From assembly GCA_018175075.1 (NCBI GenBank), contig GCA_018175075.1_4100.1: a stretch of DNA of 64,000 nt; one strand, given 5' to 3'. A program made the position numbers and the translations under genes. The first letter of the stretch is position 1, and each line of letters opens with the position of its first letter. Below, in pieces: positions 37,996 to 64,000 of this stretch. The notes below the pieces were generated by a model, which saw nothing but the letters and a program-made list of their open reading frames with translations, was not told the DNA's origin and did no database searches. The stretch comes from a phage.

Positions 37996-37996
37996 T

Positions 37997-45756: not shown

Positions 45757-45779
45757 AGCCCACCTGGTGGGCTTTTTTG
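45757..45779 (+). terminator. intrinsic terminator
   Basis: AGCCCAC-CTG-GTGGGCT + T6. Confidence 0.7.
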
Positions 45780-45867
45780 TTTTTGTAGTATCGTAGTACT
45801 GAGATACTTTGAAAATAGTTTTAAAAAAATAGTTGACATTACCGCAAAAAGGCGTAGAATATATTAC

Positions 45868-45940
45868 ATCAAGACGGGGAGCACTAAGTAGACCGCCAGT
45901 AAGTCGAACGAAAAACTGGACACGTCGAGAAAACTTTGAT
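45868..45940 (+). ncRNA. leader RNA L3 (diverged copy)
   Basis: AUCAA-GACG..UAAGUAG..CCAGU-loop-ACUGG..CGUC..UUGAU nested pairs after TTGACA-N16-TAGAAT. Confidence 0.35.
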
Positions 45941-45983
45941 ACACTAATAAACGTAAACTAAACTTTAATTGAGGATTTATAAA

Positions 45984-46466
45984 ATGGCTAATGTAAAATC
46001 ATTCATCAAAGCACTGGTAGCAAATGAAACTAACGTCGCGGCTGAGATCCTGGCTGAACTGGATAACGATACCATGAAAGCGGTACGCAATAATTTTAAC
46101 ATCGCTTACAGTACTGCGAAAGAACTACAAGCAAATAAAGCGGCAGAAATTGAAGCGGCAAAGGCGGCCCGTGAAGCAGAACTACAAGCAACAATTGAAA
46201 GTATTCAGGCGGCAGTAGTTGGATTGGATCTGGAAGTAGTTACAGAGATGGCACAAAAAGCCCTGGCGAAAAAGTACGGTGAAGATAAGCCAGAAGTAAA
46301 AGCTAAAAAATGGATTCAAGAACGTGTAGCGGTAGTACTTGATAACGGGGAAGAATATCTGATTCCGGTGCGTGGTAACTGCATTGCGGTAGTACTGGAT
46401 GCGATTAACTCCAGTGGTATGACTCGCGAGGAATGGATCGAAGCTCATCGCAAAGTTGAAGCATAA
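45984..46466 (+). CDS. hypothetical Ala/Glu-rich helical protein
   Basis: 160 aa from MANVKSF; GAGGA SD; ~110-nt structured leader. Confidence 0.65.
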   Translation: MANVKSFIKALVANETNVAAEILAELDNDTMKAVRNNFNIAYSTAKELQANKAAEIEAAKAAREAELQATIESIQAAVVGLDLEVVTEMAQKALAKKYGEDKPEVKAKKWIQERVAVVLDNGEEYLIPVRGNCIAVVLDAINSSGMTREEWIEAHRKVEA

Positions 46467-49473: not shown

Positions 49474-49483
49474 ATGAAAAAAG

Positions 49484-49570
49484 TGGTTGACTTCGGTCAG
49501 CCATTTTGCTATTATATATTCATTGAGAGATAGCTCACTAGCCCACAGGGTGCGGAAGTGTATCTATTAT
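49484..49570 (+). promoter_or_regulatory. fused terminator-promoter hairpin + GGGTGC-core element, copy 6
   Basis: TGGTTGAC-TTCG-GTCAGCCA; TTGACT-N17-TATTAT; ..UGAGAGAUAGCUCA..GCCCACAGGGUGC. Confidence 0.55.
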
Positions 49571-50688: not shown

Positions 50689-50832
50689 ATGATCGCACTG
50701 GATTCATTCATCGACGCAGTACTGGCAAAAACTGGCGAGGATCTGACCGCAGAACAATACGCAATGATCGAGCAATGCCAGCAAGACGGTAAATCGGTGA
50801 AAGATACTGTTAAGATTATCCGCAAGATGTAA
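50689..50832 (+). CDS. 47-aa small protein
   Basis: below track cutoff; AGAGAG SD-like; MIALDSFIDAVLAKTG... Confidence 0.45.
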   Translation: MIALDSFIDAVLAKTGEDLTAEQYAMIEQCQQDGKSVKDTVKIIRKM

Positions 50833-50937
50833 TATTATAGCCCACTGGTTAACGCTGGTGGGCTTTAATTCATTACCCTATACAATGCCAGTACTAAACC
50901 GTTTATCTCGTTAGAATGCATTACAGGACGTTTGACA

Positions 50938-51135
50938 ATGATTAGCATGAAATCAGTACAAAAACAAATAGAAACATTATCAAAAATTAAACGTAAACAG
51001 TACTCGTTAGAATATACAATCAATGGTAACTATCATCTAATGAAAGAAAATAATTTTATAGTCATTGATGAATCATTGCAAATCATTAGTATAGTACTGA
51101 AAGCATTAATTAATGATAGAAAAAAATTAAAATAA
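50938..51135 (+). CDS. hypothetical protein
   Basis: 65 aa from first ATG; atypically AT-rich; weak signals. Confidence 0.35.
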   Translation: MISMKSVQKQIETLSKIKRKQYSLEYTINGNYHLMKENNFIVIDESLQIISIVLKALINDRKKLK

Positions 51136-51139
51136 TCTA

Positions 51140-51235
51140 TTGACAATATCCTCCAGTACTGGCATAATACTTACATCAAGACGAGAACGTCACTAACCCA
51201 TAGGGTGCACAAATGTAACTATATAACATCGATCA
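51140..51235 (+). ncRNA. GGGTGC-core RNA element, copy 7 (with promoter)
   Basis: TTGACA-N17-CATAAT then ..GACGAGAACGUC..ACCCAUAGGGUGCACAAAUGUAACUAU. Confidence 0.35.
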
Positions 51236-51303
51236 ATAAATGATCAAAAAAGTACTGGATCAATTTAGCATAAGGCGTATAATTCTGATCAATTCTTGAT
51301 CAA
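51231..51303 (+). promoter_or_regulatory. GATCAA cluster around a promoter (operator / Dam-site candidate)
   Basis: five GATCAA in 73 bp; TATAAT at 51278-83; palindrome TGATCAATTCTTGATCA at 51286-51302. Confidence 0.45.
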
Positions 51304-51464
51304 AGGCAATATACGCAGTTGAATTTATATAGACAGTACAAAGGCGTTACTATCCGTGGTAATGCTGGTGGATATGTAGTATCATGTGGTTTGAATAAGA
51401 TTAGCACTAGTAGTATTATTGTAGCATTACAGTACTATAGTATTTTTATAATGAGGTTAAAATA

Positions 51465-51722
51465 ATGGCAGTAGGATACGCGAAAGACGGGGCCGAACAA
51501 GACGAGATTAACGCAGTGATTCAGGCCGCCGTTAACCACGCTAGAAAGCAAATTAACGCACAAAGAGAATCACTAGTACATTGCCTCGACTGCGGCGATA
51601 AAATCCCTGAGAATCGACGCCAGGCCGTTATAGGGTGCATGTATTGTATTACTTGCCAGGCGGATCATGATAGTACTTTTAAAAGAGATCCGCGTAATTG
51701 TTGGCATAGATCTATGAGATAA
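51465..51722 (+). CDS. TraR/DksA-family C4 zinc-finger protein
   Basis: CLDCGDKIPENRRQAVIGCMYCITCQ = CxxC-N17-CxxC with the IPxxRR motif. Confidence 0.8.
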   Translation: MAVGYAKDGAEQDEINAVIQAAVNHARKQINAQRESLVHCLDCGDKIPENRRQAVIGCMYCITCQADHDSTFKRDPRNCWHRSMR

Positions 51723-51786
51723 AAAGTAATTGACAGTACTGAAAGATAGTGTATAATGTTTTATATCTTAAATGAGGATAGAAATC

Positions 51787-52143
51787 ATGGGAATACAACA
51801 TATCACGCGTACTACTGACAATGGCGAGATCACTGGTTATCAGGTACAGGGCAAAGTAGCACAATTGCAGTACTGGTTTGTTAAACGTGGAATCATTGCA
51901 CCGGATCTTGATTATGACCGTGTTGCTTTCATTGATTCTCTTTATGTTGATCCTGATAGTCGGGGCAATGGTGAAGGTAACGAATTAATGAATGCCTTTA
52001 TCGATGCCGCCGATGATTCAGATTGTATCATCTTAGAATGCGATACGGGAGAAGATAACGCCTTTAATCTTAAAGAATGGTACGAAGGTTTCGGATTCGA
52101 GGTATTGATAGATAGTGAATATCCTATCATGATTTTATCATAG
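51787..52143 (+). CDS. GNAT-family N-acetyltransferase
   Basis: YVDPDSRGNGEGNELMNAFID (motif A-like), WYEGFGFE; GAGGA SD. Confidence 0.7.
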   Translation: MGIQHITRTTDNGEITGYQVQGKVAQLQYWFVKRGIIAPDLDYDRVAFIDSLYVDPDSRGNGEGNELMNAFIDAADDSDCIILECDTGEDNAFNLKEWYEGFGFEVLIDSEYPIMILS

Positions 52144-52215
52144 TACTTGCATTTAGTTTTCAGTACTGTTATAGTACTTACATCAAGGGGAAACATCTTC
52201 CCCTACTAAGAGGAA

Positions 52216-52410
52216 ATGAAAATGGAAAACTTATCAAGTATTTTAGTACAAGATGATTTCGGTAATCCTGGAAGTGCTATCATAGTTCGGGGCAATAAAG
52301 CAACGTTTGTTATTGCTGGTGGACCCGTACAGCGTAGCATTAAAAATAATGCTGTTACCATTAATAATGTACGCTATCGCTTAGATAAAGAATTAATTCA
52401 TAAACTGTAA
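52216..52410 (+). CDS. hypothetical protein
   Basis: 64 aa (or start 52222); promoter+GGGGAA/TTCCCC hairpin. Confidence 0.6.
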   Translation: MKMENLSSILVQDDFGNPGSAIIVRGNKATFVIAGGPVQRSIKNNAVTINNVRYRLDKELIHKL

Positions 52411-52437
52411 TATTAATTTAATAGAGGATAACAATAA

Positions 52438-52761
52438 ATGTACATTCATACTACTATCACAAAGGAAGTCCGTTGCCAGTTCGAAAGTATTCCGGGCGTA
52501 TGTTTCATCACTGGTACGTTTTCCCCTGGTGATCGTGATAATCCAGTACTGTTACAATTACGCCATCCATCATGGGATAAAGCATTTGATCTACCGTTGA
52601 ATGAATTCGCAACTACTGCTGAAAAGTACATTAAAAATATTCGCGAGAATGATCGACTATTCATTAATGCTTTTAGTGATTCCGCGTTAAGCGAGATCCA
52701 CGGTGTATTGGTTGCAATCATGGAATCAATGGAGAAAACTAAATTCAAACAAGGTGAATAA
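52438..52761 (+). CDS. hypothetical protein
   Basis: 107 aa; AGAGGA SD. Confidence 0.65.
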   Translation: MYIHTTITKEVRCQFESIPGVCFITGTFSPGDRDNPVLLQLRHPSWDKAFDLPLNEFATTAEKYIKNIRENDRLFINAFSDSALSEIHGVLVAIMESMEKTKFKQGE

Positions 52762-52844
52762 AAACTATTGACAAGATAATCTAGTACTGTATAATAAGTT
52801 ACATGAAGGGGAGAAATGATTCTCCCCACTGAGAGGAAAGAAAA

Positions 52845-53057
52845 ATGCAAGGTCAACTAATCGTTCGTAAATGGTCTGATACTAACGCTAAACCGTGGGA
52901 TGTACAATACATCGGCCCCAATGGTGAATCCAGATATCAACCAGGTGTAACGCATAGTACTGAGCAATTCGCCGCCGCTCATCGTGAACGTCTGTTACAA
53001 TCAATGCAGCAAGGTTCCGGTGAAAAATTCATTCAGGATCATTGGCTGAAAGATTAA
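52845..53057 (+). CDS. hypothetical protein
   Basis: 70 aa; promoter+hairpin+GAGAGG SD. Confidence 0.65.
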   Translation: MQGQLIVRKWSDTNAKPWDVQYIGPNGESRYQPGVTHSTEQFAAAHRERLLQSMQQGSGEKFIQDHWLKD

Positions 53058-53143
53058 AAAGTACTTGCACAGTACTGAATAAAGTGTATAATGTTTTATA
53101 TCGGAAGGGGAATAGTTCCCCTCCCAACAAAGAGGAAAGTATA

Positions 53144-53317
53144 ATGATCCAAGTAGAATTATCAGTACTGAAAGATCTGTTTTATCGGTTAGGTACTAAT
53201 GGCGAGTATCCTAAAAGTGATACCGCAAAACTTTTTGTATCACTCGACTTATGGCAACGCGAACAATTAGTAATGTCCTGGCGTAAAGGTAAAGCAGATC
53301 GCGAGGTGAAAGCATGA
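53144..53317 (+). CDS. hypothetical protein
   Basis: 57 aa from MIQVELSVL; promoter+hairpin. Confidence 0.55.
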   Translation: MIQVELSVLKDLFYRLGTNGEYPKSDTAKLFVSLDLWQREQLVMSWRKGKADREVKA

Positions 53318-53463
53318 AAGAATTCTTATTCGAAGTAGTGTTTCAAGGTGTCGGTAGTAACCAACTGATTCGATCAAGTGGTTACAATGTCAACCAGGCA
53401 TGGAATAACATTAAACAAATGTACCCGAACGCTATCACCTATCGCAACCCGAAAGAAGTTTAA
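53314..53463 (+). CDS. 49-aa small protein
   Basis: ATGA coupling; MKEFLFEVVFQGVGSNQ... Confidence 0.45.
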   Translation: MKEFLFEVVFQGVGSNQLIRSSGYNVNQAWNNIKQMYPNAITYRNPKEV

Positions 53464-53477
53464 AAATAATTGAAAAA

Positions 53478-53560
53478 GGGATTGACTCCGGTCAGTCCCT
53501 TTGCTATTATATACGCATAGAAACAAATCAGCCCACCGGGTGCATAAATGTATCTATTGT
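53478..53560 (+). promoter_or_regulatory. fused terminator-promoter hairpin + GGGTGC-core element, copy 8
   Basis: GGGATTGAC-TCCG-GTCAGTCCC; TTGACT-N17-TATTAT; ..GCCCACCGGGUGC.. Confidence 0.55.
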
Positions 53561-53600
53561 TTGCTGGTGGCTAGTACTGAAAACTATTTTAAAAAAGTAC

Positions 53601-53744
53601 TTGCATTGTACTTAGAATAAAGTATAATGTTTTACATCAGGACGGGGAACGAAACAAGTAACCCCGTTAAGTAGTCCAGGAGTAAGACATACGAAAAACT
53701 CCCCTGATAAAATAGTTTGACAATAGAAAGTAAACGAGTATAAT
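53601..53744 (+). ncRNA. conserved ~80-nt leader RNA L2 between tandem promoters
   Basis: near-copy of L1 with ACGGGG/CCCCGU stem variant; downstream gene unrelated to that of L1. Confidence 0.4.
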
Positions 53745-53777
53745 ACTCACATCAACCACTGATAAGGAAACATAAAA

Positions 53778-54053
53778 ATGCGGATTCTACTGACAGCTAA
53801 CGAAATCGAACAAGTACTGACTACTAACCTGGAAGACTGGAAACGTGAAGCAGATATCCAGGCGGTTCAACAGCTTAACGATGAGTTAACGCCGGATGAC
53901 TTAAGCAAGATTGTAGATCCTCAATTCTACGAAGATATCCACGACACCGCGTTAAGCGTCGAGGATGTACTAGATAAGCACTACATTGATATTGATTTGC
54001 AGGTTTACGGTCGTAAAAACTTTATCACTATTCACGACATTTACAATAATTAA
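53778..54053 (+). CDS. hypothetical acidic protein
   Basis: 91 aa; tandem promoters + conserved leader upstream. Confidence 0.65.
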   Translation: MRILLTANEIEQVLTTNLEDWKREADIQAVQQLNDELTPDDLSKIVDPQFYEDIHDTALSVEDVLDKHYIDIDLQVYGRKNFITIHDIYNN

Positions 54054-54056
54054 GTA

Positions 54057-54118
54057 TTGACAAAGTATCTTAGTACTGTATAATAGTTTACATCGAGTGA
54101 GGGGAAACGGTTCCCCTC
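54057..54118 (+). promoter_or_regulatory. mini-gene promoter + 5'UTR hairpin unit
   Basis: TTGACA-N16-TGTATAAT + GAGGGGAA-ACGG-TTCCCCTC; near-identical copy at 54328-54390. Confidence 0.6.
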
Positions 54119-54141
54119 CTAACAAAGAGAGAGAAATAAAA

Positions 54142-54324
54142 ATGGCTAAGTGCACTATCTGCAAGAAAGAAATAGTATTAGTTCCAAGTGCCCGTGAACG
54201 TGCCGCTCGGTTCGGTGGCAAAGCGTCAGACTATACAAAAATGTTTACTACCCATGCAGCTTGCCAGGTAGCAAAACGTTCACAAGAAAGCGTAGAATTA
54301 ATGCGTAAACTTTCCAAAAAATAA
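54142..54324 (+). CDS. small Cys-containing protein (possible Zn ribbon)
   Basis: MAKCTICKKEIVLVP...THAACQV; promoter+hairpin. Confidence 0.6.
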   Translation: MAKCTICKKEIVLVPSARERAARFGGKASDYTKMFTTHAACQVAKRSQESVELMRKLSKK

Positions 54325-54411
54325 GTATTGACAAAGTATCTTAGTACTGTATAATAGTTTACATCAAGTGAGGGGAATGGTTCCCCTCCTAACTAAAAGA
54401 GAGAAATAAAA

Positions 54412-54735
54412 ATGGCTATGATCCTTGCCCAGAAAGTAGAATTGAAAATTGTAACCTCATTTGACATTAACGTTAATCGGTGGACTGATTCACACGGCAA
54501 TACTTACCACTCTTGCTACGTGTCTGCGTTAATTGGCGACCGCTGGGAAGACCTGGGACATGAAACCTTTACATACGGTTACGGCACACAAGGCGAATAC
54601 ACGGGCTTGGAGATCATTAAAGAAACCGTTATAGGTTTCAACCCGAAAGAAAAAGTTATTCACCAAATCGAAAAAGAGATTAACAAAGAAATAACAGTTC
54701 GATACAACGATGTAAAACGTAAGAAAGACATGTAA
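54412..54735 (+). CDS. hypothetical protein (paralog of 47590..47913)
   Basis: NRWTDSHGNTYHSCYVS...FTYGYGTQ...VKRKKDM. Confidence 0.7.
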   Translation: MAMILAQKVELKIVTSFDINVNRWTDSHGNTYHSCYVSALIGDRWEDLGHETFTYGYGTQGEYTGLEIIKETVIGFNPKEKVIHQIEKEINKEITVRYNDVKRKKDM

Positions 54736-54830
54736 TAGAATCCATTTAAAGTACTATTTGACATTGCCCAGATAGTACTTTATAATAGACTCTAACTTGT
54801 AGTACTAACTTAACTAATAGGATGTATACC

Positions 54831-55226
54831 ATGATTACTAAATTCTACGCTACCCGTGAAGCTGCCCGTATTGTTGCACGCGAGGAAGGAGCAGCATTTA
54901 AAGACATGGGCAAAGATGCACCGAAAGGCCAACGCTGGGCCGTACAGTTCAAAGAGATCTCTGATATTGTGAATTCACCTGAGCCAGTACTAACAGCAGC
55001 AGAACTAAAACGAGCGGATATGCTGGCGGCAATACTTGACGCACAAGATGAGTTTATCGCTGGTTCTGATATCAAAGTACAGGTAAACCACACCGCATGG
55101 ACTCACGCGGATCACCTGGCAAACCTTAAGCGTCCAAGTGAACTGATTCGCAACCAGAAAGAGATCCGACATGATCGTAAGGGTAATCGTGTAACAGTAT
55201 ACAGTAAACGCCGCCAGGTTATCTAA
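54831..55226 (+). CDS. hypothetical protein (paralog of 41555..41818)
   Basis: MITKFYATREAARIVAREEGAAFKDMG...DRKGNRVTVYSKRR. Confidence 0.65.
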   Translation: MITKFYATREAARIVAREEGAAFKDMGKDAPKGQRWAVQFKEISDIVNSPEPVLTAAELKRADMLAAILDAQDEFIAGSDIKVQVNHTAWTHADHLANLKRPSELIRNQKEIRHDRKGNRVTVYSKRRQVI

Positions 55227-55248
55227 TAACTTGCAGTACTAACAACAC

Positions 55249-55273
55249 GGCGGGATCAGTTCCCGCCTTTTTT
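55249..55273 (+). terminator. intrinsic terminator
   Basis: GGCGGGA-TCAG-TTCCCGCC + T6. Confidence 0.7.
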
Positions 55274-55287
55274 ATAGGACAAACAAA

Positions 55288-55542
55288 ATGATTAAGGTTC
55301 AACTATATAAAGATAACATCTTACGGGTACACTATAAAGCACCTCAGAGAATCATCACAAAGGCCGTACAGCTTGCTAATGAGTTTATTAATGGTAACCT
55401 ATTACCTAGGAAGTTAAGCAACGGGAAACTGCGTGTAATCGACGTGGACACTAACAACAGGATAGTAATCGAGAACACAGGAAAGATAAACCTTTATGAG
55501 CATCAACAATACAATAAGAAAATAAAACTAATATCACGTTGA
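55288..55542 (+). CDS. hypothetical protein
   Basis: 84 aa; follows terminator at 55249. Confidence 0.6.
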   Translation: MIKVQLYKDNILRVHYKAPQRIITKAVQLANEFINGNLLPRKLSNGKLRVIDVDTNNRIVIENTGKINLYEHQQYNKKIKLISR

Positions 55543-55595
55543 CAGTACTCAAATGTTTTAGTACTATGTACACATACCAACACGGGAGAAACAAA

Positions 55596-55814
55596 ATGAA
55601 ATTATCTAAAATCGAAAAGAAAACTATTGATGAAGCAGTTAAGCACGGTTATACCTTTCGTAATGATTCACATTTTACCAATTTTCAACAAGGGTATCGT
55701 ACTATTAAAAAACTAATTGACAAAGGTTTATTAGTTGAAGTCAATAACGGTAACGGTATCGAGTATCAACCAACACAAGACGCATTTTATTTTAAGAAAT
55801 ATAATATTATCTAA
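55596..55814 (+). CDS. hypothetical protein
   Basis: 72 aa from MKLSKIEKK; TTGACA-N17-TACTAT promoter at 55540. Confidence 0.6.
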   Translation: MKLSKIEKKTIDEAVKHGYTFRNDSHFTNFQQGYRTIKKLIDKGLLVEVNNGNGIEYQPTQDAFYFKKYNII

Positions 55815-55872
55815 TTGACAGTACTCAAATGTTTTAGTACTATATGTACATACCAACACGGGGAGAAACAAA

Positions 55873-56115
55873 ATGATTACTTTAGAAAAACGTATCAAAG
55901 AAACTACATCGCTGGTGGAACTGTTAACAGTACTGAAATGTAAAACAACACCATTCAGCACGCCGGACTTTATTAATATGGTTGATGTTAATGGTCGCTA
56001 TCGTATCACGGTCGTGAATGGTGCGGCGAAAGTATTCAGTACTAAAAACACTAAGGAAGTGATCCACGCCGTTAATGTTAAAAAAGTAGTTGCCATTGAT
56101 AGTAAAGTACTGTAA
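55873..56115 (+). CDS. hypothetical protein
   Basis: 80 aa; near-identical copy of the 55540 promoter upstream. Confidence 0.6.
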   Translation: MITLEKRIKETTSLVELLTVLKCKTTPFSTPDFINMVDVNGRYRITVVNGAAKVFSTKNTKEVIHAVNVKKVVAIDSKVL

Positions 56116-56146
56116 GATAGTTTCATTAACTCAAGGAGTAAATGCA

Positions 56147-56731
56147 ATGCGTAATTATACTAAATTCATCCGTACACTGTCAGAAATGGAAACCAACAAA
56201 GAGATCCTTTCAGCTTGTCGGTTAGCTGGCCTGGAGATCATCGGGGCGGGATCTTCCCGTATAGTTTTCGCTTTAAATGATCGGTTAGTGATTAAGGTCG
56301 CGAATTGTGATGCGGGTGTAGAACAAAATGAAACTGAATGTAAGGTATGGAATTTTTTAGACTATGACCGCCCTCAGTTGAAACAGTACTTTGCAAAGGT
56401 GCATATGCATTTATGCGATCCTGATAATATGTTTATCGTTATGGATCGGTTGAGTACTGCAAGCAAAGGCAGTGTGAAGCACGTTAACGCGTGCAATGAA
56501 TTAAAGTACAATATTAAACGTAATGCAATCGAACGCCAGCACCGCTTTGCTGATGCACTACAACACGTTGATGATACATTATCAACACTAACGATAAGAG
56601 ATATCAGAAAACAGAATATCGGCCAGGATCGTAATGGACTTATTAAAGTACTTGATTACGGTTTAACCCGCAATATCTGGAATCAGTACTATAAAAAGCG
56701 TGATGTAGCAGCAAGTAAGGTAACACGATAA
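56147..56731 (+). CDS. protein-kinase-like protein (mini-kinase 3)
   Basis: IIGAGSSRIVF...LVIKVA; RDIRKQNIGQDRNGLIKVLDYG; AAGGAG SD. Confidence 0.55.
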   Translation: MRNYTKFIRTLSEMETNKEILSACRLAGLEIIGAGSSRIVFALNDRLVIKVANCDAGVEQNETECKVWNFLDYDRPQLKQYFAKVHMHLCDPDNMFIVMDRLSTASKGSVKHVNACNELKYNIKRNAIERQHRFADALQHVDDTLSTLTIRDIRKQNIGQDRNGLIKVLDYGLTRNIWNQYYKKRDVAASKVTR

Positions 56732-56745
56732 AAAAGATTAAAAAA

Positions 56746-56832
56746 GGGATTGACTCCGGTCAGTCCCTTTGCTATTATATATTCATTGAGAGATAACTCA
56801 CTGACCCATAGGGTGCATAAGTGTATCTATTA
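56746..56832 (+). promoter_or_regulatory. fused terminator-promoter hairpin + GGGTGC-core element, copy 9
   Basis: same hairpin; TTGACT-N17-TATTAT; ..UGAGAGAUAACUCA..ACCCAUAGGGUGC. Confidence 0.55.
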
Positions 56833-56953
56833 TATAAGTATTCAGTACTGGAAACTATTTTTAAAAAGTACTTGCATTGTACTTAGAATCAAGTATAATG
56901 TTTTATATCGAGAGGGGGAAATGGTTCTCCCTGGTACATTAAGGAATAAAATC

Positions 56954-57175
56954 ATGACTACAATGACTTGCATTCACGCTTCAAACCTGCTTAATGATGC
57001 GGCCTTTAATGTTGATTCAGAATATCAATGTTATCGGGATGAAAATAAAAAAGTTTTTGTAGTTGATAATAATGGTTTCCATATTGAATTACAATCCGGC
57101 TTCACTGGTGTTGATGGTAAATCAGTATGGGGCGTACAGGATGATAAAGGTACATATCATTTTAAACGTAATTAA
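56954..57175 (+). CDS. hypothetical protein
   Basis: 73 aa from MTTMTCIH; the long track ORF runs through the regulatory module. Confidence 0.6.
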   Translation: MTTMTCIHASNLLNDAAFNVDSEYQCYRDENKKVFVVDNNGFHIELQSGFTGVDGKSVWGVQDDKGTYHFKRN

Positions 57176-57261
57176 GTATTGACAAAGTATATCAGTACTG
57201 TATAATAGTTTACATCAAGGGGAGAATAGTTCTCCCCACACCAATAAAAGGAAACAAAATT

Positions 57262-57534
57262 ATGTCCAGCTACTCCGCTACTATGATCATTAAAGATATG
57301 AACGGTAATCCTACTTCTGCTGGTGGATCATTTGGAAACATTAATTTAGATGGTCGGTTATCCATGCAATCAGCCATTGATGCAGCTAAAGAAGTTTTTA
57401 AGAATGAATGTACTGTAAGCAAGCTGGATTATATGGGATTCGCTATCGAGAAAACTAATCGTTTTGTGAACTACAAAAAGCCTATGATGATTGATACTAA
57501 CCTGAAAGCTAACGAAGTGGAATACTTATTATGA
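57262..57534 (+). CDS. hypothetical protein
   Basis: 90 aa; promoter+hairpin. Confidence 0.65.
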   Translation: MSSYSATMIIKDMNGNPTSAGGSFGNINLDGRLSMQSAIDAAKEVFKNECTVSKLDYMGFAIEKTNRFVNYKKPMMIDTNLKANEVEYLL

Positions 57535-57722
57535 CAGTAGAAGAAGTTAAAAAAGTACTGGCAGTACTACGCTATCATAATCATTGTAAGGTGAAGAATG
57601 ATCCTGATTATCTTGATTCATCCCTGGAGGAAGACACCTTAAACGCGATAAGCTATATGCAAACATTAGCAAAGCGTATGACCGAAAAGAATAGGCCGGA
57701 CTATATAGGAAATAAAATTTAA
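57531..57722 (+). CDS. hypothetical protein
   Basis: 63 aa; ATGA coupling. Confidence 0.6.
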   Translation: MTVEEVKKVLAVLRYHNHCKVKNDPDYLDSSLEEDTLNAISYMQTLAKRMTEKNRPDYIGNKI

Positions 57723-57809
57723 AAAGTACTTGCATTGTAGTTAGATTAACGTATAATGTTTTATATCGAGAGGGGGAAATGGTTTCCCCTCAAGTCCAGG
57801 AGATACACC

Positions 57810-58073
57810 ATGAACACTATCGAAATCACTATCAATGCACACGTATACGACAACGTAGTACTGCAAACTACTATGACCGCTAATGATACCAGTACTTTGC
57901 GGAATACTGTTATTAGTGCCGTATGTGCTGCAATCGGTGATGTCGCCCTGGAAAATGCAAAACACGTAAACGATGGTTTCACTATGTGCAAACGTGATAA
58001 CGCAAAACATATCATCGTGGAAGGTTACGGCGGTGTAGAATTTAATGTTTATATGAAAAAAGTACTTGCATAA
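57810..58073 (+). CDS. hypothetical protein
   Basis: 87 aa from MNTIEITI; 3' end (KKVLA*) overlaps the next -35. Confidence 0.65.
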   Translation: MNTIEITINAHVYDNVVLQTTMTANDTSTLRNTVISAVCAAIGDVALENAKHVNDGFTMCKRDNAKHIIVEGYGGVEFNVYMKKVLA

Positions 58074-58140
58074 TAACTAAAACAAAGTATAATGTTTTGC
58101 ATAGGGGGAGATATCCTCCCCCACTAAAAGGAGTAATAAA

Positions 58141-58365
58141 ATGGCTAACTTTGATGAACTGATGCGGGAAGTAGCTACCCTGGCAGAAGAGAAGAAATCA
58201 TTCGATTCTATCTATAACACCGCTCACCGTGATTCAGTACTGGCATGTACTCAGGATCAAAAAGATGAACTAATCGCCACCTATCATGAAGCATGGAAGT
58301 ACTACCGCCAATGGGAGAAAGAAGAAAGCGAGTCTACCATCAACGGCATCAATAATCTAATCTAA
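58141..58365 (+). CDS. hypothetical protein
   Basis: 74 aa; promoter+GGGGGAG/CTCCCCC hairpin. Confidence 0.65.
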   Translation: MANFDELMREVATLAEEKKSFDSIYNTAHRDSVLACTQDQKDELIATYHEAWKYYRQWEKEESESTINGINNLI

Positions 58366-58371
58366 AAGTTT

Positions 58372-58425
58372 TATTTCAGTACTATTGACATAGCTTGATA
58401 GTACTGATGTAATAACTTTACTAAC
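58372..58425 (+). repeat. type-2 promoter repeat (variant)
   Basis: ..TCAGTACTATTGACATAGCTTGATAGTACTGATGTAAT. Confidence 0.55.
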
Positions 58426-58441
58426 TACAAGGGGAAACATC

Positions 58442-58699
58442 ATGGAACAATTCACACAATATCGGGTAAATCCTCAAGCTATGGCCTACGTAGAAGACCA
58501 TAAAACGTTACCAGTACTGCAACCAGTTAAAGGCCATATCTATCGTGGCCTTGCCTGGGATACGGCCCAGGATGGATATAAAACCGTCGCAGTGGGGATG
58601 TATTGCGGGAATGGTGAATGGTTTGATCCTAACAATCCGATTGCACTTGACAGTACTGAAAAAATGAAATGGGCCGACTACATCGAAGATATTTCATAA
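58442..58699 (+). CDS. hypothetical protein
   Basis: 85 aa; type-2 promoter repeat upstream. Confidence 0.6.
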   Translation: MEQFTQYRVNPQAMAYVEDHKTLPVLQPVKGHIYRGLAWDTAQDGYKTVAVGMYCGNGEWFDPNNPIALDSTEKMKWADYIEDIS

Positions 58700-58789
58700 A
58701 AACTATTTGACAGTACTAACCAGTAATGTATAATGTTTTACATAGAGCGGGGGAATAGTTCTCCCGCCAATAGTTTGGAGTAAAACATT

Positions 58790-58990
58790 ATGTCTATCGC
58801 TATCGCCCTGGTTGAAGTACTGAAAGAAGCTAAAGCCAACCTTATCGATGTACAGATTAAGGAATTGCAAAACGGCTTAATCGGCTGTACTTGTACCGCT
58901 GGCGGTGCGGCAGACTATCGAGAACACGAATCACTCGAATCACTGGTTCGGTATCTTACCATGATCGTTGATGATTGGAGAATCATCTAA
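58790..58990 (+). CDS. hypothetical protein
   Basis: 66 aa; promoter+hairpin. Confidence 0.6.
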   Translation: MSIAIALVEVLKEAKANLIDVQIKELQNGLIGCTCTAGGAADYREHESLESLVRYLTMIVDDWRII

Positions 58991-59009
58991 CAAAAAAAGA
59001 ATAAAAAAA

Positions 59010-59090
59010 GGGATTGACTCCGGTCAGTCCCTTTGCTATTATATACGCATAGACAAAAACTAGCCCACAGGGTGCATAAGTGTATCCAAA
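59010..59090 (+). promoter_or_regulatory. fused terminator-promoter hairpin + GGGTGC-core element, copy 10
   Basis: same hairpin; TTGACT-N17-TATTAT; ..UAGACAAAAACUA..GCCCACAGGGUGC. Confidence 0.55.
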
Positions 59091-59238
59091 ATATATAGTT
59101 AATAACGGTGAGTAACTATCTGCTGGTGGAGTGAAAACTATTAATAAAAAAAAGTATTGACAAAGTATATCAGTACTGCAATAATGTATCTCGTAGGGCG
59201 GCAATGGTGCGACGGCCCACAAAGTTAGGAGATTCAAA

Positions 59239-59571
59239 ATGACTACTTCAATCGCTATCGTTAAAGCTTTCATCCGTACTAATGTTTCCTCTGTATTCAT
59301 CGACGGCCTCGACCGTAACGTAGAATACTCAATCATTATCGCACAAACGGCAAACGGTTCTCGGTACATCCTGAATGATAGTGAAGCAAATCACTACTAC
59401 TTCACTAAAGCCACTGGCTTTAAACGCATCGATGCTGATGTAGTATACGCTAAGATGAATAAGCTGGTAGACAAGATTAACGCGAAAGGTACTATCGATT
59501 TACAGTACTGGACCGAAACCGATCCAGAATATGGATCTCACCGCTACCTGAATCCAGGTATTAAAATGTAA
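59239..59571 (+). CDS. hypothetical protein
   Basis: 110 aa; TTGACA promoter at 59158; AGGAG SD. Confidence 0.65.
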   Translation: MTTSIAIVKAFIRTNVSSVFIDGLDRNVEYSIIIAQTANGSRYILNDSEANHYYFTKATGFKRIDADVVYAKMNKLVDKINAKGTIDLQYWTETDPEYGSHRYLNPGIKM

Positions 59572-59578
59572 AAAGTAC

Positions 59579-59640
59579 TTGCATAGTACTTAGAATCAAG
59601 TATAATGTTTTACATAGAGAGGGGGAAATGGTTCTCCCTC
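59579..59640 (+). promoter_or_regulatory. mini-gene promoter + 5'UTR hairpin unit
   Basis: TTGCAT-N16-TATAATGTTTTACAT + GAGGGGGAA-ATGG-TTCTCCCTC. Confidence 0.6.
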
Positions 59641-59660
59641 CTACTTTAAGGAGTATTATC

Positions 59661-60062
59661 ATGACCTTCACTATCACTTCTTACGCTGACGTTTTAGTAC
59701 TGGCCCGGACTTTTGGTAAAGCTGGCCTTGAACACGCTGTAAGTAATGGTCATATGCACCCTGAATATTGCCGCATCATTGGAAGCTGTAAACGTTGGGC
59801 CGTGTCCCGTAACATTGAGATTGAAAACTTCAATGACGGTAACAACGAATATACAGTTGATGCAGTATTCGAATCCGTTGATCTCGGCGGTATCTATAAC
59901 ACTAACCTGAATGATGTGCGTATCGTTCGCACGGGGTTCGGTGCTTATGATGTATCTATCCGTGAAGCTATGGACAAGGGATACATTAGCAAGGACCAGT
60001 TAGCTTACATCATGCAGCAAACTAAGGAACGTAACGAAGCACGTACTATCTTAGGGCTGTAA
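59661..60062 (+). CDS. hypothetical protein
   Basis: 133 aa from MTFTITSY; promoter+hairpin+AAGGAG SD. Confidence 0.65.
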   Translation: MTFTITSYADVLVLARTFGKAGLEHAVSNGHMHPEYCRIIGSCKRWAVSRNIEIENFNDGNNEYTVDAVFESVDLGGIYNTNLNDVRIVRTGFGAYDVSIREAMDKGYISKDQLAYIMQQTKERNEARTILGL

Positions 60063-60130
60063 GCAATACACATCACCAAACATCATAGGCCGCTCTCTAG
60101 CGGCCTTAACTATATCAGGAGGGCATACAT

Positions 60131-60340
60131 ATGTTCTATACAGTATACAGCGTTCTAGGCACTATTGCAGGCGTACATGATAACGTCAATGATGCTATGC
60201 GTACAGTACTGCAACAGGTTCCACTAAAGCCTAAGACCATTAAGCAGATGACAGCACGACTAACCAGGGCGACCGATGGCGTGGAAGTATGGCAGGACTA
60301 CGGGGATACACAGATAATCGTTAGCGTAACGAAGGATTAA
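60131..60340 (+). CDS. hypothetical protein
   Basis: 69 aa; AGGAGG SD; last gene of the G+C-richer block. Confidence 0.6.
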   Translation: MFYTVYSVLGTIAGVHDNVNDAMRTVLQQVPLKPKTIKQMTARLTRATDGVEVWQDYGDTQIIVSVTKD

Positions 60341-60531: not shown

Positions 60532-60559
60532 TTGACTTTTTATATGAATCGTATAAAAT
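60532..60559 (+). promoter_or_regulatory. sigma70-type promoter of the GTNYQ array
   Basis: TTGACT-N16-TAAAAT, about 30 nt upstream of 60590. Confidence 0.45.
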
Positions 60560-60589
60560 ATGATTGATATTAATTTTAAGGGAGTCCCT

Positions 60590-60787
60590 ATGCGTATTTT
60601 AACTAAAGAACAGCACCACGAAAGACTTATCAATAACATGGCTATGATAATGTATAAGTCCCATGACCGTGGTATTGCCTATAAGCGTGAATTAATTATG
60701 GCACTATTCATTGGAACTAACTTTCAGGAAAGGTATGTCAACGATTGGATTTGGTATTTAATTGAAGATATAACGAGTAAACTATGA
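60590..60787 (+). CDS. small protein, GTNYQ tandem family
   Basis: MRILTKEQHHERL...FIGTNFQERYV...ITSKL; promoter at 60532. Confidence 0.65.
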   Translation: MRILTKEQHHERLINNMAMIMYKSHDRGIAYKRELIMALFIGTNFQERYVNDWIWYLIEDITSKL

Positions 60788-60984
60788 AAATGCGTATTTT
60801 AAATAAAGAAGAATATCAATCACTGTTACGTAAAAACTACGTAAAGATTTACAACACAGACACACATGTAGAACGAATGGAGTTATACCTTTTGATTACA
60901 TTGGGAACAAACTATCAGGGTAGATGGGTGTGGCAATATATGGATACATTGAAAAATAAAATATTGTCCACGAGGAAACAATGA
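60784..60984 (+). CDS. small protein, GTNYQ tandem family
   Basis: MKMRILNKEEYQSLL...TLGTNYQGRWV; ATGA coupling. Confidence 0.65.
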   Translation: MKMRILNKEEYQSLLRKNYVKIYNTDTHVERMELYLLITLGTNYQGRWVWQYMDTLKNKILSTRKQ

Positions 60985-61190
60985 AAACTATAACACGAAC
61001 CCAATCATACGGTCTTATCTTGAAATACATGGACTTAATGGTGGATATCAGCAAAGACCTGCCTAAAACTGAAATTGAAGTTGCAAGAGCAGAGATCCGC
61101 ATGTTGGCTGTACTGAACACAAACCATCAGGAAGAGTATGTTCAAGATTGGATTCGATTTTTAATAGAAGATATTAAGAGTAAACTATGA
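60981..61190 (+). CDS. small protein, GTNYQ tandem family
   Basis: ...IRMLAVLNTNHQEEYV...IKSKL. Confidence 0.65.
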   Translation: MKTITRTQSYGLILKYMDLMVDISKDLPKTEIEVARAEIRMLAVLNTNHQEEYVQDWIRFLIEDIKSKL

Positions 61191-61399
61191 TTATATTAAC
61201 ACCTGAAGAATATAAGAAACGTTTTAAATCTGTCCAGGCTGAAATATTACTTATATACCTTTCAAATGCAGATCTTAACTTATCAAGGGTAATGGAGAAG
61301 GATTTACTTATGGGTGCATTTTTGGATACAGACTTTCAGGAGTATTATGTAGGAGAATACTTTATTGCACTTCAGAACCACATTAAGAGTAAACTATGA
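61187..61399 (+). CDS. small protein, GTNYQ tandem family
   Basis: MIILTPEEYKKRF...FLDTDFQEYYV...IKSKL. Confidence 0.65.
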   Translation: MIILTPEEYKKRFKSVQAEILLIYLSNADLNLSRVMEKDLLMGAFLDTDFQEYYVGEYFIALQNHIKSKL

Positions 61400-61611
61400 T
61401 TATTCTAGAAAAATCATATCAATATACTGAACGCATCGCTGCCAGACAACTTGAAATCCTCATAATATACGAAGAGACTTCTGATTTAAACTTAGCCGAG
61501 GTATTGGAAAATGAAATACTTTTGGGTGCATTCTTGGGAACAGACTATCAGGAGTATTATGAGGAAAAGTATTTGTCATCTCTTGAGAAATACGTCAGGA
61601 GCAAACTATGA
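61396..61611 (+). CDS. small protein, GTNYQ tandem family
   Basis: MIILEKSYQYTERI...FLGTDYQEYYE...VRSKL. Confidence 0.65.
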   Translation: MIILEKSYQYTERIAARQLEILIIYEETSDLNLAEVLENEILLGAFLGTDYQEYYEEKYLSSLEKYVRSKL

Positions 61612-61835
61612 AACATTTAAGTAATATAGAGAAGAATAAAATTATCATTGCTGTAATAAACAAATATTTTACACTTCCACAAAAAGAATGTTTATCTATA
61701 AGGGAACACAGGATAAACACCACCGAGATTCGCATGTTGGCTGTACTGGGGACTAACTTCCAAGAAGGCTATGTTCATGAGCACATCGTTGCACTCACTA
61801 ATTACATAATGGACAAATGTAATGAACATCATTAA
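61608..61835 (+). CDS. small protein, GTNYQ tandem family
   Basis: ...IRMLAVLGTNFQEGYV. Confidence 0.65.
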   Translation: MKHLSNIEKNKIIIAVINKYFTLPQKECLSIREHRINTTEIRMLAVLGTNFQEGYVHEHIVALTNYIMDKCNEHH

Positions 61836-62046
61836 TAACTTTGAATACGAGGCCCGTGCTAAGAGTGCCAGAAAAAAAGAGAACACCATTTACTTCACTA
61901 TGATGTACTTACAATGGACTGAAATTGAAGAAAAGGTTGCTGAAGTATGGATGTTGGAATTCATGGGGACGCAGTATCAGAATAGGTTTGCGGGTGAGTA
62001 TATCAATGTTCTTATGAAACAAATAGAAAGAAAGGAAAAGAACTAA
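61822..62046 (+). CDS. small protein, GTNYQ tandem family
   Basis: ...MLEFMGTQYQNRFA. Confidence 0.6.
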   Translation: MNIINNFEYEARAKSARKKENTIYFTMMYLQWTEIEEKVAEVWMLEFMGTQYQNRFAGEYINVLMKQIERKEKN

Positions 62047-62204
62047 TGGTTTTCATTAACATATCTGACCAACTCGATACTAAACTAGAAGTCGAGCAGA
62101 GTGAGGGATGGATGTTGTACTTTCTTGGAACTTCTCATCAGAATTTTTATATCCATGAACACATAGTTGCACTCACAAATCTAATAAGGGATAAATGTAA
62201 ATGA
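62046..62204 (+). CDS. small protein, GTNYQ family, N-terminally truncated member
   Basis: 52 aa, below track cutoff: ...MLYFLGTSHQNFYIHEHIVALTNLI. Confidence 0.45.
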   Translation: MVFINISDQLDTKLEVEQSEGWMLYFLGTSHQNFYIHEHIVALTNLIRDKCK

Positions 62205-62458
62205 AACACTTGACGAACGATGAATATTCACTTAGAATTCGAAAGCTCACCCCAGAAGCAAGAGTAATCTACGATGACGATGCACTTTCATGGAACGAGA
62301 TGAAAGTTAAAGTTCATGAGCTATGGTTGCTGTACTTTGTGGGAACCCAATATCAAGAGAAATATTGTACCGATTATCTTGAACAACTAATGGATCTTAT
62401 ACAGATAAAACTAAATGAACGAATTGTGGAAAAATATGAAAACTTTATCAAGCTCTGA
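62201..62458 (+). CDS. small protein, GTNYQ tandem family
   Basis: MKHLTNDEYSLRI...LLYFVGTQYQEKYC. Confidence 0.65.
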   Translation: MKHLTNDEYSLRIRKLTPEARVIYDDDALSWNEMKVKVHELWLLYFVGTQYQEKYCTDYLEQLMDLIQIKLNERIVEKYENFIKL

Positions 62459-62687
62459 GTATCAAGCCGCCCTCTTCTCTATTCTTAACACCCTTAGAAA
62501 AAACTATGCATTACATGGTGCACCTGAATTGGATGTTATCAACGGTGATGTTTATCTTATGAAATTCATTGGAACAAACTATCAAGAACTGTTCATTCTA
62601 CGATACCTATCAGCATTAAGAAACCAAATCCAATATAAAACCGTCAAGGCCAAAAAAGAATGGAATAAACAATGCGACAAAGACTAA
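62436..62687 (+). CDS. small protein, GTNYQ tandem family
   Basis: MKTLSSSEYQAAL...MKFIGTNYQELFI. Confidence 0.6.
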   Translation: MKTLSSSEYQAALFSILNTLRKNYALHGAPELDVINGDVYLMKFIGTNYQELFILRYLSALRNQIQYKTVKAKKEWNKQCDKD

Positions 62688-62923
62688 ATCACAAAATGTA
62701 TTGTAAACTATTGCAGACACTGGCACAGAAACACTATGACACTGTATCTGAAATATTACCCTATGATATCATGCGTTTAATTCATAGTGAGGCAGAGATG
62801 CTTGTACTGATGACAGGCACTGATAAAAAAGCAATTGCCAAATCAATAGATATGTTCATCGAAGCACAATGTCAACACATTAGAACCGAGATATGGAGAC
62901 GAGAGAATGATAACACTAAATGA
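62672..62923 (+). CDS. small protein, GTNYQ family (diverged)
   Basis: ...EMLVLMTGTDKKAIA; same size and position. Confidence 0.55.
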   Translation: MRQRLNHKMYCKLLQTLAQKHYDTVSEILPYDIMRLIHSEAEMLVLMTGTDKKAIAKSIDMFIEAQCQHIRTEIWRRENDNTK

Positions 62924-63122
62924 GTTTCAGTATCATTGGAGGTTACAAGCTATAAGAAGGAAAGTTGTTAGTATTTCTTTAGACAAGTCTATTGCACAAG
63001 AGGACAAATGTGTTATAATAGCTGAAATGAAGTTGGGTGCTTTCGTAGGAACAAACTATCAAAACATCTACACTGACGTATTGTTAAGTGCCTTACGTAA
63101 CAAGGTGATATCTAAAGAATGA
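62907..63122 (+). CDS. small protein, GTNYQ tandem family
   Basis: MITLNEFQYHWRL...LGAFVGTNYQNIYT. Confidence 0.65.
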   Translation: MITLNEFQYHWRLQAIRRKVVSISLDKSIAQEDKCVIIAEMKLGAFVGTNYQNIYTDVLLSALRNKVISKE

Positions 63123-63337
63123 GAAAATTACAAGGCTTTGAATACATCAGACTCCTGAAAACATGTGCCAACAGAAGAGTAAAGATTCAATCTGATAAGA
63201 GCATCCCTGCCAACCTAAAACATGCAATGGTAGCTGAACTCTATGCAGGGGCACTCATAGGGACAAACTATCAACAAATGTATATAGACATGTGGGTTGA
63301 TGCATTAGTCAAGGTGACCCAAAGTAAATGCAAATGA
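63119..63337 (+). CDS. small protein, GTNYQ tandem family
   Basis: ...YAGALIGTNYQQMYI. Confidence 0.65.
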   Translation: MRKLQGFEYIRLLKTCANRRVKIQSDKSIPANLKHAMVAELYAGALIGTNYQQMYIDMWVDALVKVTQSKCK

Positions 63338-63546
63338 TTAATTTAAGTAAAGATGAATATTATGAACGTCTTGCAAAAACTTATCCAGCACGTAACGCCG
63401 TTTATAATAGTAACATTATTGAACGCTCAAAGAAGTTGATTGTAGTAAATGAGATTAAGATGCTTTCAGTCTTAGGAACAAACTATCAAGAGAATGCTGT
63501 ACTGTTGTTAATTGATGCCCTCCAGAGAGAGATACAAAGTAAATGA
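63328..63546 (+). CDS. small protein, GTNYQ tandem family
   Basis: MQMINLSKDEYYERL...MLSVLGTNYQENAV. Confidence 0.65.
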   Translation: MQMINLSKDEYYERLAKTYPARNAVYNSNIIERSKKLIVVNEIKMLSVLGTNYQENAVLLLIDALQREIQSK

Positions 63547-63791
63547 TTCATTTATCTTACCATGATTATCAAAAACGTTTAAATGCATCAAGGGATATAA
63601 GGATTCAAATCTTCAATAACAAAAAATTGAAACCTGACACCAGAAGAATCAAAATGATAGAAGCAGAGTTATGCAACTTCCTGGGGACGAACTATCAGGC
63701 AGGTAAGGTAAAAAACTATCTTAGAGAACTAATGATTTGTATCGAAAATAAATGTGAGGTTGATGAACATGCAAATGATCAATTTAAGTAA
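63543..63791 (+). CDS. small protein, GTNYQ tandem family
   Basis: ...ELCNFLGTNYQAGKV. Confidence 0.65.
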   Translation: MIHLSYHDYQKRLNASRDIRIQIFNNKKLKPDTRRIKMIEAELCNFLGTNYQAGKVKNYLRELMICIENKCEVDEHANDQFK

Positions 63792-64000
63792 AGATGAATA
63801 TACCGAGCGTATGACAAAAATTACGCACAAACGTAATACAATCTATCACAACCCAGAAATCCAACACAGTAAGAAAATGATTATGATGCGTGAGTTAAAG
63901 ATGGGTGTATTCTTAGGAACAAACTATCAAGATACAGAAGTAAATCGCTTAATCGCGGAGTTACTACTGGAAATCAAAGGTAAGCTGTACTTTCATCAAA
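63769..64000 (+). CDS. small protein, GTNYQ tandem family (3' end outside window)
   Basis: MQMINLSKDEYTERM...MGVFLGTNYQDTEV; open to window edge. Confidence 0.6.
   Translation, partial: MQMINLSKDEYTERMTKITHKRNTIYHNPEIQHSKKMIMMRELKMGVFLGTNYQDTEVNRLIAELLLEIKGKLYFHQ

Follow-up and report, generated by a model that had tools for sequence, protein, structure and literature searches.

Why would a phage keep a long series of small, mutually related genes, packed head to tail on a single strand? The question is posed by a 64,000-nucleotide stretch of phage DNA (contig GCA_018175075.1_4100.1 of GenBank assembly GCA_018175075.1), called the window here and numbered from its first letter, which ends in such a series at positions 60590-64000. 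A sequence-only reading of the window, made from the letters and a list of open reading frames (ORFs), had described the series as a family of at least 16 paralogs sharing a central GTNYQ-like motif, and had pointed to a second, unrelated array of small genes on the other side of a G+C-richer block. We find that the GTNYQ array encodes a narrow family of small proteins, preserved by purifying selection and situated beside the terminal repeat of the genome, and we consider, tentatively, that it may serve the takeover of the host cell.

A single family of overlapping small genes

The array comprises 15 complete ORFs of 52-90 amino acids (aa) and a sixteenth, starting at about 63769, that is cut by the window end. 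All lie on the plus strand, head to tail and with no intergenic gaps beyond 2 nt. Neighbouring genes share an ATGA overlap at 8-9 of the 15 junctions, and the remaining junctions range from a 2-nt gap to a 44-nt overlap depending on the start codon that is taken, which agrees with the earlier description of genes joined mostly by ATGA or short overlaps. A profile hidden Markov model (HMM) built from 15 window members and scanned against the six-frame ORFs of the whole window matched exactly the 16 array ORFs, with E-values of 1e-18 to 1e-29, the next best match having an E-value of about 1. In a MAFFT alignment the T of the GT motif is invariant, and conservation reaches at least 90% both for the Q at the third position after it and for an L farther downstream, so that the central GT/Q pattern is reproduced by computed multiple alignment. 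Because the model picks out exactly these 16 ORFs and the motif is recovered in the alignment, the observation is real and lies far beyond chance, and the proposed family of 16 paralogs (15 complete, one cut) stands. A C-terminal SKL that had been said to occur often is present in only 4 of the 16 members; the conserved feature at that place is a K, at 79% in the profile.

The first gene begins at 60590, as originally assigned. Its Shine-Dalgarno (SD) sequence AAGGGAG at 60578-60584 (plus strand), with a duplex energy of -7.9 kcal/mol against the anti-SD, is the strongest in the array, and both this element and ATGCGTATTTT are kept in related phages, in which an upstream ATG at 60560 is not conserved.

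Copy number and orthology in related phages

Megablast with the array stretch retrieved 36 GenBank phages, at identities of 84-90%; these are without exception Asteriusvirus-type jumbo phages of E. coli or Salmonella and including 121Q, PBECO4, G17, slurp01, phAPEC6 and fEgEco12; every gene under these matches is annotated as 'hypothetical protein'. Judged from its sequence, the window is part of an Asteriusvirus (121Q/PBECO4-like) E. coli jumbo phage. Counted with an iterated family HMM, contiguous copies number 29 in G17, 30 in slurp01, 29 in PBECO4, 28 in fEgEco12, 27 in UB and 23 in 121Q, and each sequenced relative has about two further members slightly downstream of the contiguous array. 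The array proper extends over about 6.4 kb and 27-30 genes in relatives. Since these carry 23-30 contiguous copies, the window holds roughly the first half of the array, which does run off the window end as had been supposed. The copy counts leave out phage CMSTMSU, whose record (MH494197.1) carries the flag UNVERIFIED_ORG; its array ORFs are broken up in a way that hints at frameshift errors, which makes the record unfit for comparisons of gene content.

The window members correspond one to one to G17 members 1-3, 5, 4, 6-15 and 17, with one adjacent pair swapped and G17 member 16 absent, and positional one-to-one orthologs were likewise found in slurp01 and PBECO4. Member 1 (60590-60787, 65 aa; HMM E-value 2e-22) is 100% identical to G17 member 1. 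It is followed through an ATGA overlap by member 2 (60784-60984, 66 aa), then by member 3 (60981-61190, 69 aa), in which the alignment places the motif variant NTNHQ, and by the swapped pair, member 4 (61187-61399, 70 aa), the ortholog of G17 member 5, and member 5 (61396-61611, 71 aa), the ortholog of G17 member 4, which has an isoelectric point (pI) of 4.4. Member 6 (61608-61835, 75 aa) shares 73% identity with its G17 ortholog. Members 7 (61822-62046, 74 aa) and 8 (62046-62204, 52 aa, a short form without helix 1) are the two genes that phage UB lacks relative to G17. Member 9 (62201-62458, 85 aa; E-value 1.6e-29) was the one chosen for structure modelling; member 10 (62436-62687) has 83 aa, or 90 aa from an alternative start at 62415; and member 11 (62672-62923, 83 aa), with GTDKK at the motif, is the most diverged, yet is matched by the family HMM with an E-value of 1.6e-21. 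Members 12 (62907-63122, 71 aa), 13 (63119-63337, 72 aa, pI 9.7), 14 (63328-63546, 72 aa) and 15 (63543-63791, 82 aa) are each supported by HMM and ortholog, and the cut member 16 (63769-64000) is aligned as the ortholog of G17 member 17.

Purifying selection on old paralogs

Pooled over orthologs, the ratio of nonsynonymous to synonymous substitution rates (dN/dS) is 0.30-0.39 in comparisons with four genomes. Within the GTxxQ motif there are 47 synonymous and 6 nonsynonymous differences, giving an omega of 0.03 against 0.3-0.5 in the helices and loops, counts that come from ortholog pairs that are not phylogenetically independent. By this substitution pattern, the array genes are real coding genes under purifying selection.

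The paralogs are only distantly alike. Amino-acid identity among them is 29% at the median and 51% at most, and the best nucleotide self-matches reach 70-81% over 56-165 nt, besides a few matches of 21-33 nt at junctions and in the motif. Near-identical copies, as expected of a recently amplified family or genomic accordion, were not found; because the copies are ancient, and because purifying selection maintains each of them as an ortholog in its own position, the array is not a recent accordion. Within the window, adjacent copies are not significantly more alike than distant ones (p = 0.18). In G17, 25 of 31 members find their best non-self match in their own genome, often in the immediate neighbour, and on this evidence most of the expansion was by tandem duplication inside the E. 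coli lineage. In Klebsiella phages of the RaK2 type (RaK2, Muenster) about five members, some of them fused, lie scattered over the 10 kb that follow the repeat, and uncultured relatives carry arrays of 12-16, one of these relatives having a nucleotide coverage of 2-3% against the sequenced phages and another none.

These data bear directly on the sole interpretation that the literature gives of the array of phage 121Q, which is that of genome filler: in keeping with a ratchet idea for genome growth (Hua et al., 2017; PMC5646251; repeated in PMC13282480), a resident small gene would have been duplicated in tandem after capsid enlargement, leaving copies with little or no individual function. 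The frequency with which the nearest paralog is the immediate neighbour is what tandem duplication predicts, and copy number is evidently tolerated from 5 in RaK2 to about 30. However, each paralog is kept as a positional ortholog, at the overall and motif-specific dN/dS values given above; paralogs as old as these all keep their open frames, start signals and fold core; and divergent uncultured lineages retain their arrays of 12-16. Filler DNA needs no conserved codons, so that purifying selection on each copy contradicts this explanation, which we regard as improbable.

Turnover between strains

Nucleotide coverage of the window's 3.5 kb across the 36 Asteriusvirus genomes descends from 100% to 1%. 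Synonymous divergence per gene forms a mosaic, with dS changing between 0 and 0.6 from one gene to the next, and genes have been gained, lost and swapped. Against fEgEco12 the array is 90-92% identical with gaps, and the adjacent repeat 96-98% identical. From such comparisons, the array locus is a hot spot of between-strain variation. To this extent the birth-and-death turnover that had been suggested for the family holds, in that gene content differs between strains. It had been deduced, however, from two members taken to be decaying copies, the truncated one at 62046-62204 and the diverged one at 62672-62923, and both proved to be intact as orthologs elsewhere: in G17, slurp01 and PBECO4 these are 98-100% and 83-93% identical, respectively, and the diverged member also has a 90% ortholog in UB, with an ortholog dN/dS of about 0.2 (0.22). 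Being intact and conserved in relatives, the two are variants and not products of decay. Forms of 52 aa such as member 8 constitute the protein clusters P0082 and P0089.

Segments of 58-130 nt that are 75-81% identical, mostly encoding C-terminal parts, occur between otherwise diverged paralogs (60716-60787 with 61119-61190, 61770-61826 with 62148-62205, and 61271-61399 with 61483-61611). Such patches point to partial gene conversion or to a chimeric origin of some copies. The junction sequence AAGAGTAAACTATGA, which is common to several members, could be a recombination point, for example in the exchange of members 4 and 5 relative to G17.

The turnover weighs against a model in which all paralogs would join in one hetero-oligomeric intracellular assembly, with coupled translation providing fixed ratios and the shared core mediating co-assembly. 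The overlapping, coupled architecture of the operon would suit such a complex, as would the combination of a common conserved core face with an otherwise variable surface. A fixed machine, however, would resist the loss, swapping and replacement of single members that is seen between close phages, and sister-genus phages manage with five dispersed copies, some of them fused to another domain. We therefore consider a single assembly to be very unlikely.

A three-helix bundle predicted for the family

Full-length matches to phrog_4148, which PHROGs annotates as of unknown function, were obtained for 6 of 7 tested members (E-values 4e-15 to 7e-24, profile positions 1-73). The entry is a sequence cluster without annotation, and the most diverged member, 62672-62923, falls outside it and had no PHROG match. 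Searches of Pfam, NCBIfam and PDB sequences returned nothing significant for the family. None of 15 members was matched meaningfully by the HMMs of PADLOC, a collection of defence systems, and no anti-defence protein library formed part of that search. An exhaustive profile search of 1.84 billion representatives recovered only 69 clusters of the family, which is therefore narrow.

Structure prediction with AlphaFold2, run on member 9 with the 15-sequence alignment, gave a model with a predicted local distance difference test (pLDDT) score of 97.1, in which helices span residues 6-24, 31-46 and 52-84 and a one-residue beta-bridge connects residue 2 with the T of the GT motif. We are confident of the modelled fold as a three-helix bundle with a small N-terminal beta-bridge, and it replaces the helical hairpin that had been anticipated. 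Compared by Foldseek with BFVD, it retrieved only the family's own members. The conserved positions are L2, E38, L/M41, L45, G46, T47, Q50, Y57, I58, L61, I65 and K68, the remainder being highly variable. Since they are mostly hydrophobic and, in helix 3, are spaced at i, i+1, i+4, i+8 and i+11 and so fall onto one helical face, these positions look fold-defining. Across members, pI ranges from 4.3 to 9.9 and net charge from -8.5 to +8.8; the grand average of hydropathy (GRAVY) falls below zero for almost every member, and these hydrophilic proteins show no obvious segment of the kind that spans membranes.

Outside Asteriusvirus, fused forms exist that carry an extra C-terminal domain of about 55 aa with a predicted beta-beta-beta-alpha-beta order. 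In the numbering of their own sequences, they lie at 11992-12357 and 15636-15983 in RaK2 (L015), at 15278-15625 in Muenster (L016), at 8470-8838 in L003 and at 14699-15100 in L007. A fused member of the RaK2 type was modelled with a pLDDT of 87.7, its N-terminal domain being the same as in the first model. The added domain found no match in Pfam, and its best Foldseek match in the PDB had an E-value of 0.3.

The model and the charge distribution allow a further explanation to be weighed, namely that the paralogs bind nucleic acid, either as transcription factors or as proteins that coat DNA or RNA, and so organise or regulate a very large genome. The proteins are indeed helical bundles of small size, the pI exceeds 8 in 15 of 29 G17 members, and an expansion of about 35 zinc-ribbon copies in phage G offers an analogy (PMC7824862). 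Nevertheless one third of the members are acidic, and no homology to DNA-binding proteins was found: neither by sequence nor by fold did the family match helix-turn-helix or other DNA-binding families. A general role in nucleic-acid binding thus appears to us improbable.

Position at the terminal repeat

The direct terminal repeat (DTR) of phage fEgEco12 measures 20,993 bp, as confirmed by PhageTerm and restriction digests (PMC13070987). In local alignment, position 1 of fEgEco12 corresponds to window position 39039 and the end of its DTR (20,993, where the record likewise ends) to 60492, and single high-scoring segment pairs cross both of these boundaries. The interval 39039-60492 (plus strand), about 21 kb, has a G+C content of 0.37-0.42 against 0.33-0.35 in its flanks and is the G+C-richer block of the earlier reading. 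Because the window is a collapsed representation, of the circular or concatemer type, this block is the terminal repeat in single copy. Its boundaries in this phage are inferred from relatives that are 94-97% identical, and not from reads.

Past the repeat end at 60492, on the unique side, a promoter-like site follows after 40 bp and the start codon of gene 1 after 98 bp. By these alignments the GTNYQ array is the first gene cluster, or operon, of the unique region, beside the left repeat. Phage vB_Ec-M-J, with a DTR of 21,525 bp, shows the same placement, as its match to window position 60500 starts at 21,534 and gene 1 lies about 100 bp past the DTR end. In Klebsiella phage Muenster, where PhageTerm ends the repeat at 20,030, the first family member starts at 20,246. 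To judge from these records, the placement of the family beside the repeat holds across genera.

The second small-protein family, phrog_11711, has 19 members of 59-84 aa at 34374-38765 (plus strand; alignment and HMM count) with the motif KEYY...C...Y..L.LI, and its array is interrupted by a gene for a 219-aa protein at 36211-36870. It corresponds to g596-g613 of fEgEco12, which end about 300 bp before DTR-R, and it forms the last cluster before the right copy of the repeat; 121Q has 16 copies. That the two families are unrelated in sequence, as had been stated, is borne out by an hhalign probability of 2%. Both arrays do adjoin the repeat, but the 'striking organisation' seen in their flanking one block is plainly explained by the collapse of the roughly 21-kb DTR. 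In packaged DNA they lie about 330 kb apart, at opposite ends of the unique sequence.

Promoters, ribosome-binding signals and a probable early region

The promoter-like site at the head of the array, TTGACT-16-TAAAAT at 60532-60559 (plus strand), resembles a sigma-70 promoter and was identified in a consensus scan (10/12). Of 7 aligned genomes, 6 keep it; in PBECO4 the sequence upstream of the array differs but still presents TTGACA-17-TATGAT. SD-like pairing upstream of the array starts averages -4.4 kcal/mol against -2.0 kcal/mol in controls. As it is strongest at gene 1, the pattern fits de novo initiation at that gene and coupled re-initiation downstream. The G17 annotation has no terminators inside the array, which from its anatomy looks like one long translationally coupled operon.

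The repeat next to it abounds in host-type promoters. The window contains 13 perfect TTGACA-N16/17-TATAAT promoters where 0.19 are expected, all on the plus strand and 11 of them inside 39039-60492, typically one per small gene of the repeat. Among the products encoded there are a DksA-like zinc-finger protein (51465-51722), a GNAT acetyltransferase (51772-52143) and a kinase-like protein (56090-56731). On this gene and promoter content, the repeat block has the evident character of an early region. In phage CBB, RpoD-type promoters before short ORFs beside the terminal repeat have been read as marking an early region for host takeover (PMC5259590).

The promoter context is of the early and not the late type, and this is one of several points that tell against the paralogs being internal proteins that are packaged and injected, after the manner of T4-type internal-protein loci, with their N-terminus serving as a capsid-targeting signal. 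The conserved N-terminus, M-x-I/L-L-x-x-x-E-Y, could be so construed, and an inner body has been described in 121Q (PMC5646251) and phAPEC6 (PMC7247149). In the model, however, the beta-bridge to the GT motif makes the N-terminal residues part of the fold, and none of the 23 array genes of phAPEC6 (gp467c-gp489c) is represented among its 62 virion proteins, a data set from another strain. Delivery with the virion is accordingly most improbable.

Two recurrent elements accompany the promoters of the repeat. There are 64 copies of the 8-bp palindrome CAGTACTG where chance predicts 0.97; they lie between window positions 1 and 60211, most densely in 38960-46116 and 50717-60211, and none falls in the GTNYQ array. 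AGTACTGTATAAT, with one mismatch allowed, occurs 20 times against 0.42 expected. In most perfect sigma-70 promoters the CAGTACTG/AGTACTGTATAAT motif lies in the spacer, directly 5' of the -10 box, and it could be an operator through which a phage regulator acts on early promoters. The second element is a 28-nt hairpin, AAAGGGATTGACTCCGGTCAGTCCCTTT, followed by GCTATTATAT, at 53475-53512, 56743-56780 and 59007-59044, with a variant at 49480-49517. The stem of AAAGGGATTGACTCCGGTCAGTCCCTTT holds a TTGACT -35 box, so that this unit, which recurs between early genes, combines a terminator-like hairpin with a promoter.

Other genes in the window

On the minus strand, 20097-34289 holds about 11 paralogous genes for proteins of 245-411 aa with RCC1-like repeats (Pfam PF25390 and PF00415). 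Elsewhere such genes bear the annotation 'DNA condensation proteins', which is also that of several virion-associated proteins of phAPEC6. Seven head-to-tail ORFs of 104-141 aa occupy 16972-19411 on the plus strand; two of them were compared with PHROGs and matched phrog_19454 and phrog_26405, each listed there as of unknown function. Scans of the window for Rfam families and for tRNAs gave no hits.

Discussion

The existence of the array is not new. Hua et al. (2017, mBio; PMC5646251) gave one sentence to an array in 121Q whose genes they called 'very similar', and a 2026 review repeats the statement (PMC13282480). The window array corresponds to 155,646-158,564 of 121Q at 86.6% identity, and the GTNYQ family, with 25 HMM matches of which 23 are contiguous as gp319-gp341, forms the largest tandem array of that phage; the array of Hua et al. 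is thus almost certainly the same locus. Their account gives neither coordinates nor the position relative to the repeat, and it does not define the family, its structure or the selection on it; 'very similar' contrasts with the median paralog identity of 29% that we find. Searches of the literature on Asteriusvirus-related genomes (Sharanji, fEgEco12, UE-S1, phAPEC6 and CBB) found no mention of the array. Relative to the literature searched, the family definition, the predicted fold, the selection pattern, the lineage-specific expansion and the position at the repeat boundary are new.

We propose that the array is an early takeover or counter-defence operon of small binders, a reading to which we assign a probability of about 45% and which is therefore tentative. 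According to this proposal, host sigma-70 RNA polymerase would start at the promoter-like site 60532-60559, perhaps assisted by read-through from the consensus promoters of the repeat, and the array would be expressed early, right after the terminal-repeat genes. Translation would begin at the strong SD of gene 1, and ribosomes would re-initiate at each ATGA or short overlap, leading to coordinated synthesis of all paralogs. The products would share a hydrophobic core and a GTxxQ turn tying the N-terminus to helix 3 and would differ at their surfaces, as their span of pI values implies. From a shared core combined with very different surfaces it would follow that the paralogs form a panel of small binders acting stoichiometrically, the likeliest role of which would be to inhibit or modulate proteins of the host or of competing phages, with different paralogs addressing different targets.

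Several considerations count against this proposal. The overall dN/dS of 0.3-0.4 is without the sign of positive selection that an arms race might predict, although the test is coarse and its pairs are not independent. The promoter at the head of the array agrees with the consensus at only 10 of 12 positions, and the repeat boundaries in the window are taken over from the 94-97% identical relatives and not from reads of this phage. In the searches that were run, no homology or likeness of fold to known anti-defence, takeover or regulatory proteins was found, and the literature searched yielded no transcriptome, infected-cell proteome or genetics for any Asteriusvirus.

Comparable arrangements are known from other viruses. 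Bacillus phage G carries a lineage-specific expansion of about 35 zinc-ribbon copies (Iyer et al., 2021; PMC7824862). The resemblance is that, in each case, a jumbo phage has expanded a single family of small proteins to some 30 copies or more; the differences are that the protein is a zinc ribbon there and a cysteine-poor three-helix bundle here, and that host and phage lineage are others. A counterpart in position is provided by SPO1, whose host-takeover module sits in the terminal redundancy, and by T5, whose pre-early genes lie in the terminal repeat; the small genes of these modules are unrelated to one another, and each has its own promoter within the repeat. Common to these phages and the present one are many small genes of unknown fold, at or beside a long direct repeat and behind promoters of host type, which in the present case are consensus matches, whereas here one paralogous family of about 30 copies forms one overlapping operon just outside the repeat, with a proposed early timing.

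The MGF110, MGF360 and MGF505 multigene families (MGF) of African swine fever virus (ASFV) and the terminal host-range families of poxviruses have a demonstrated role in host range and lie beside inverted terminal repeats. As in the present phages, paralogous families occupy both ends of the unique region beside the terminal repeats, and their copy number and content vary by isolate; the viruses are eukaryotic, however, the proteins unrelated and the repeats inverted instead of direct, and for the phage arrays a role in host range is hypothetical. By this analogy, both arrays may be the phage counterpart of these terminal multigene families, that is, host-range panels of binders in which the GTNYQ bundle would be a new inhibitor scaffold and in which the position at the repeat edge would favour unequal recombination and the exchange of cassettes between co-infecting phages. 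We see this broader parallel as possible, though doubtful.

The GTNYQ family accounts for about 5% of the genes of a 350-kb phage, and its interest rests on this size, on its placement at the terminal-repeat boundary and on the ease with which it can be tested. The block is compact, non-structural and naturally variable, and it should therefore be deletable. Its placement at the edge of the repeat, with a second family at the other edge, and its expansion in the E. coli lineage, to about 30 copies against 5 in Klebsiella phages of the RaK2 type, make the question experimentally tractable. If the proposal of a binder panel is true, many new small inhibitors could be drawn from the array, and it would be among the determinants of the host range of phages that have been proposed for the therapy of E. 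coli and Salmonella infections.

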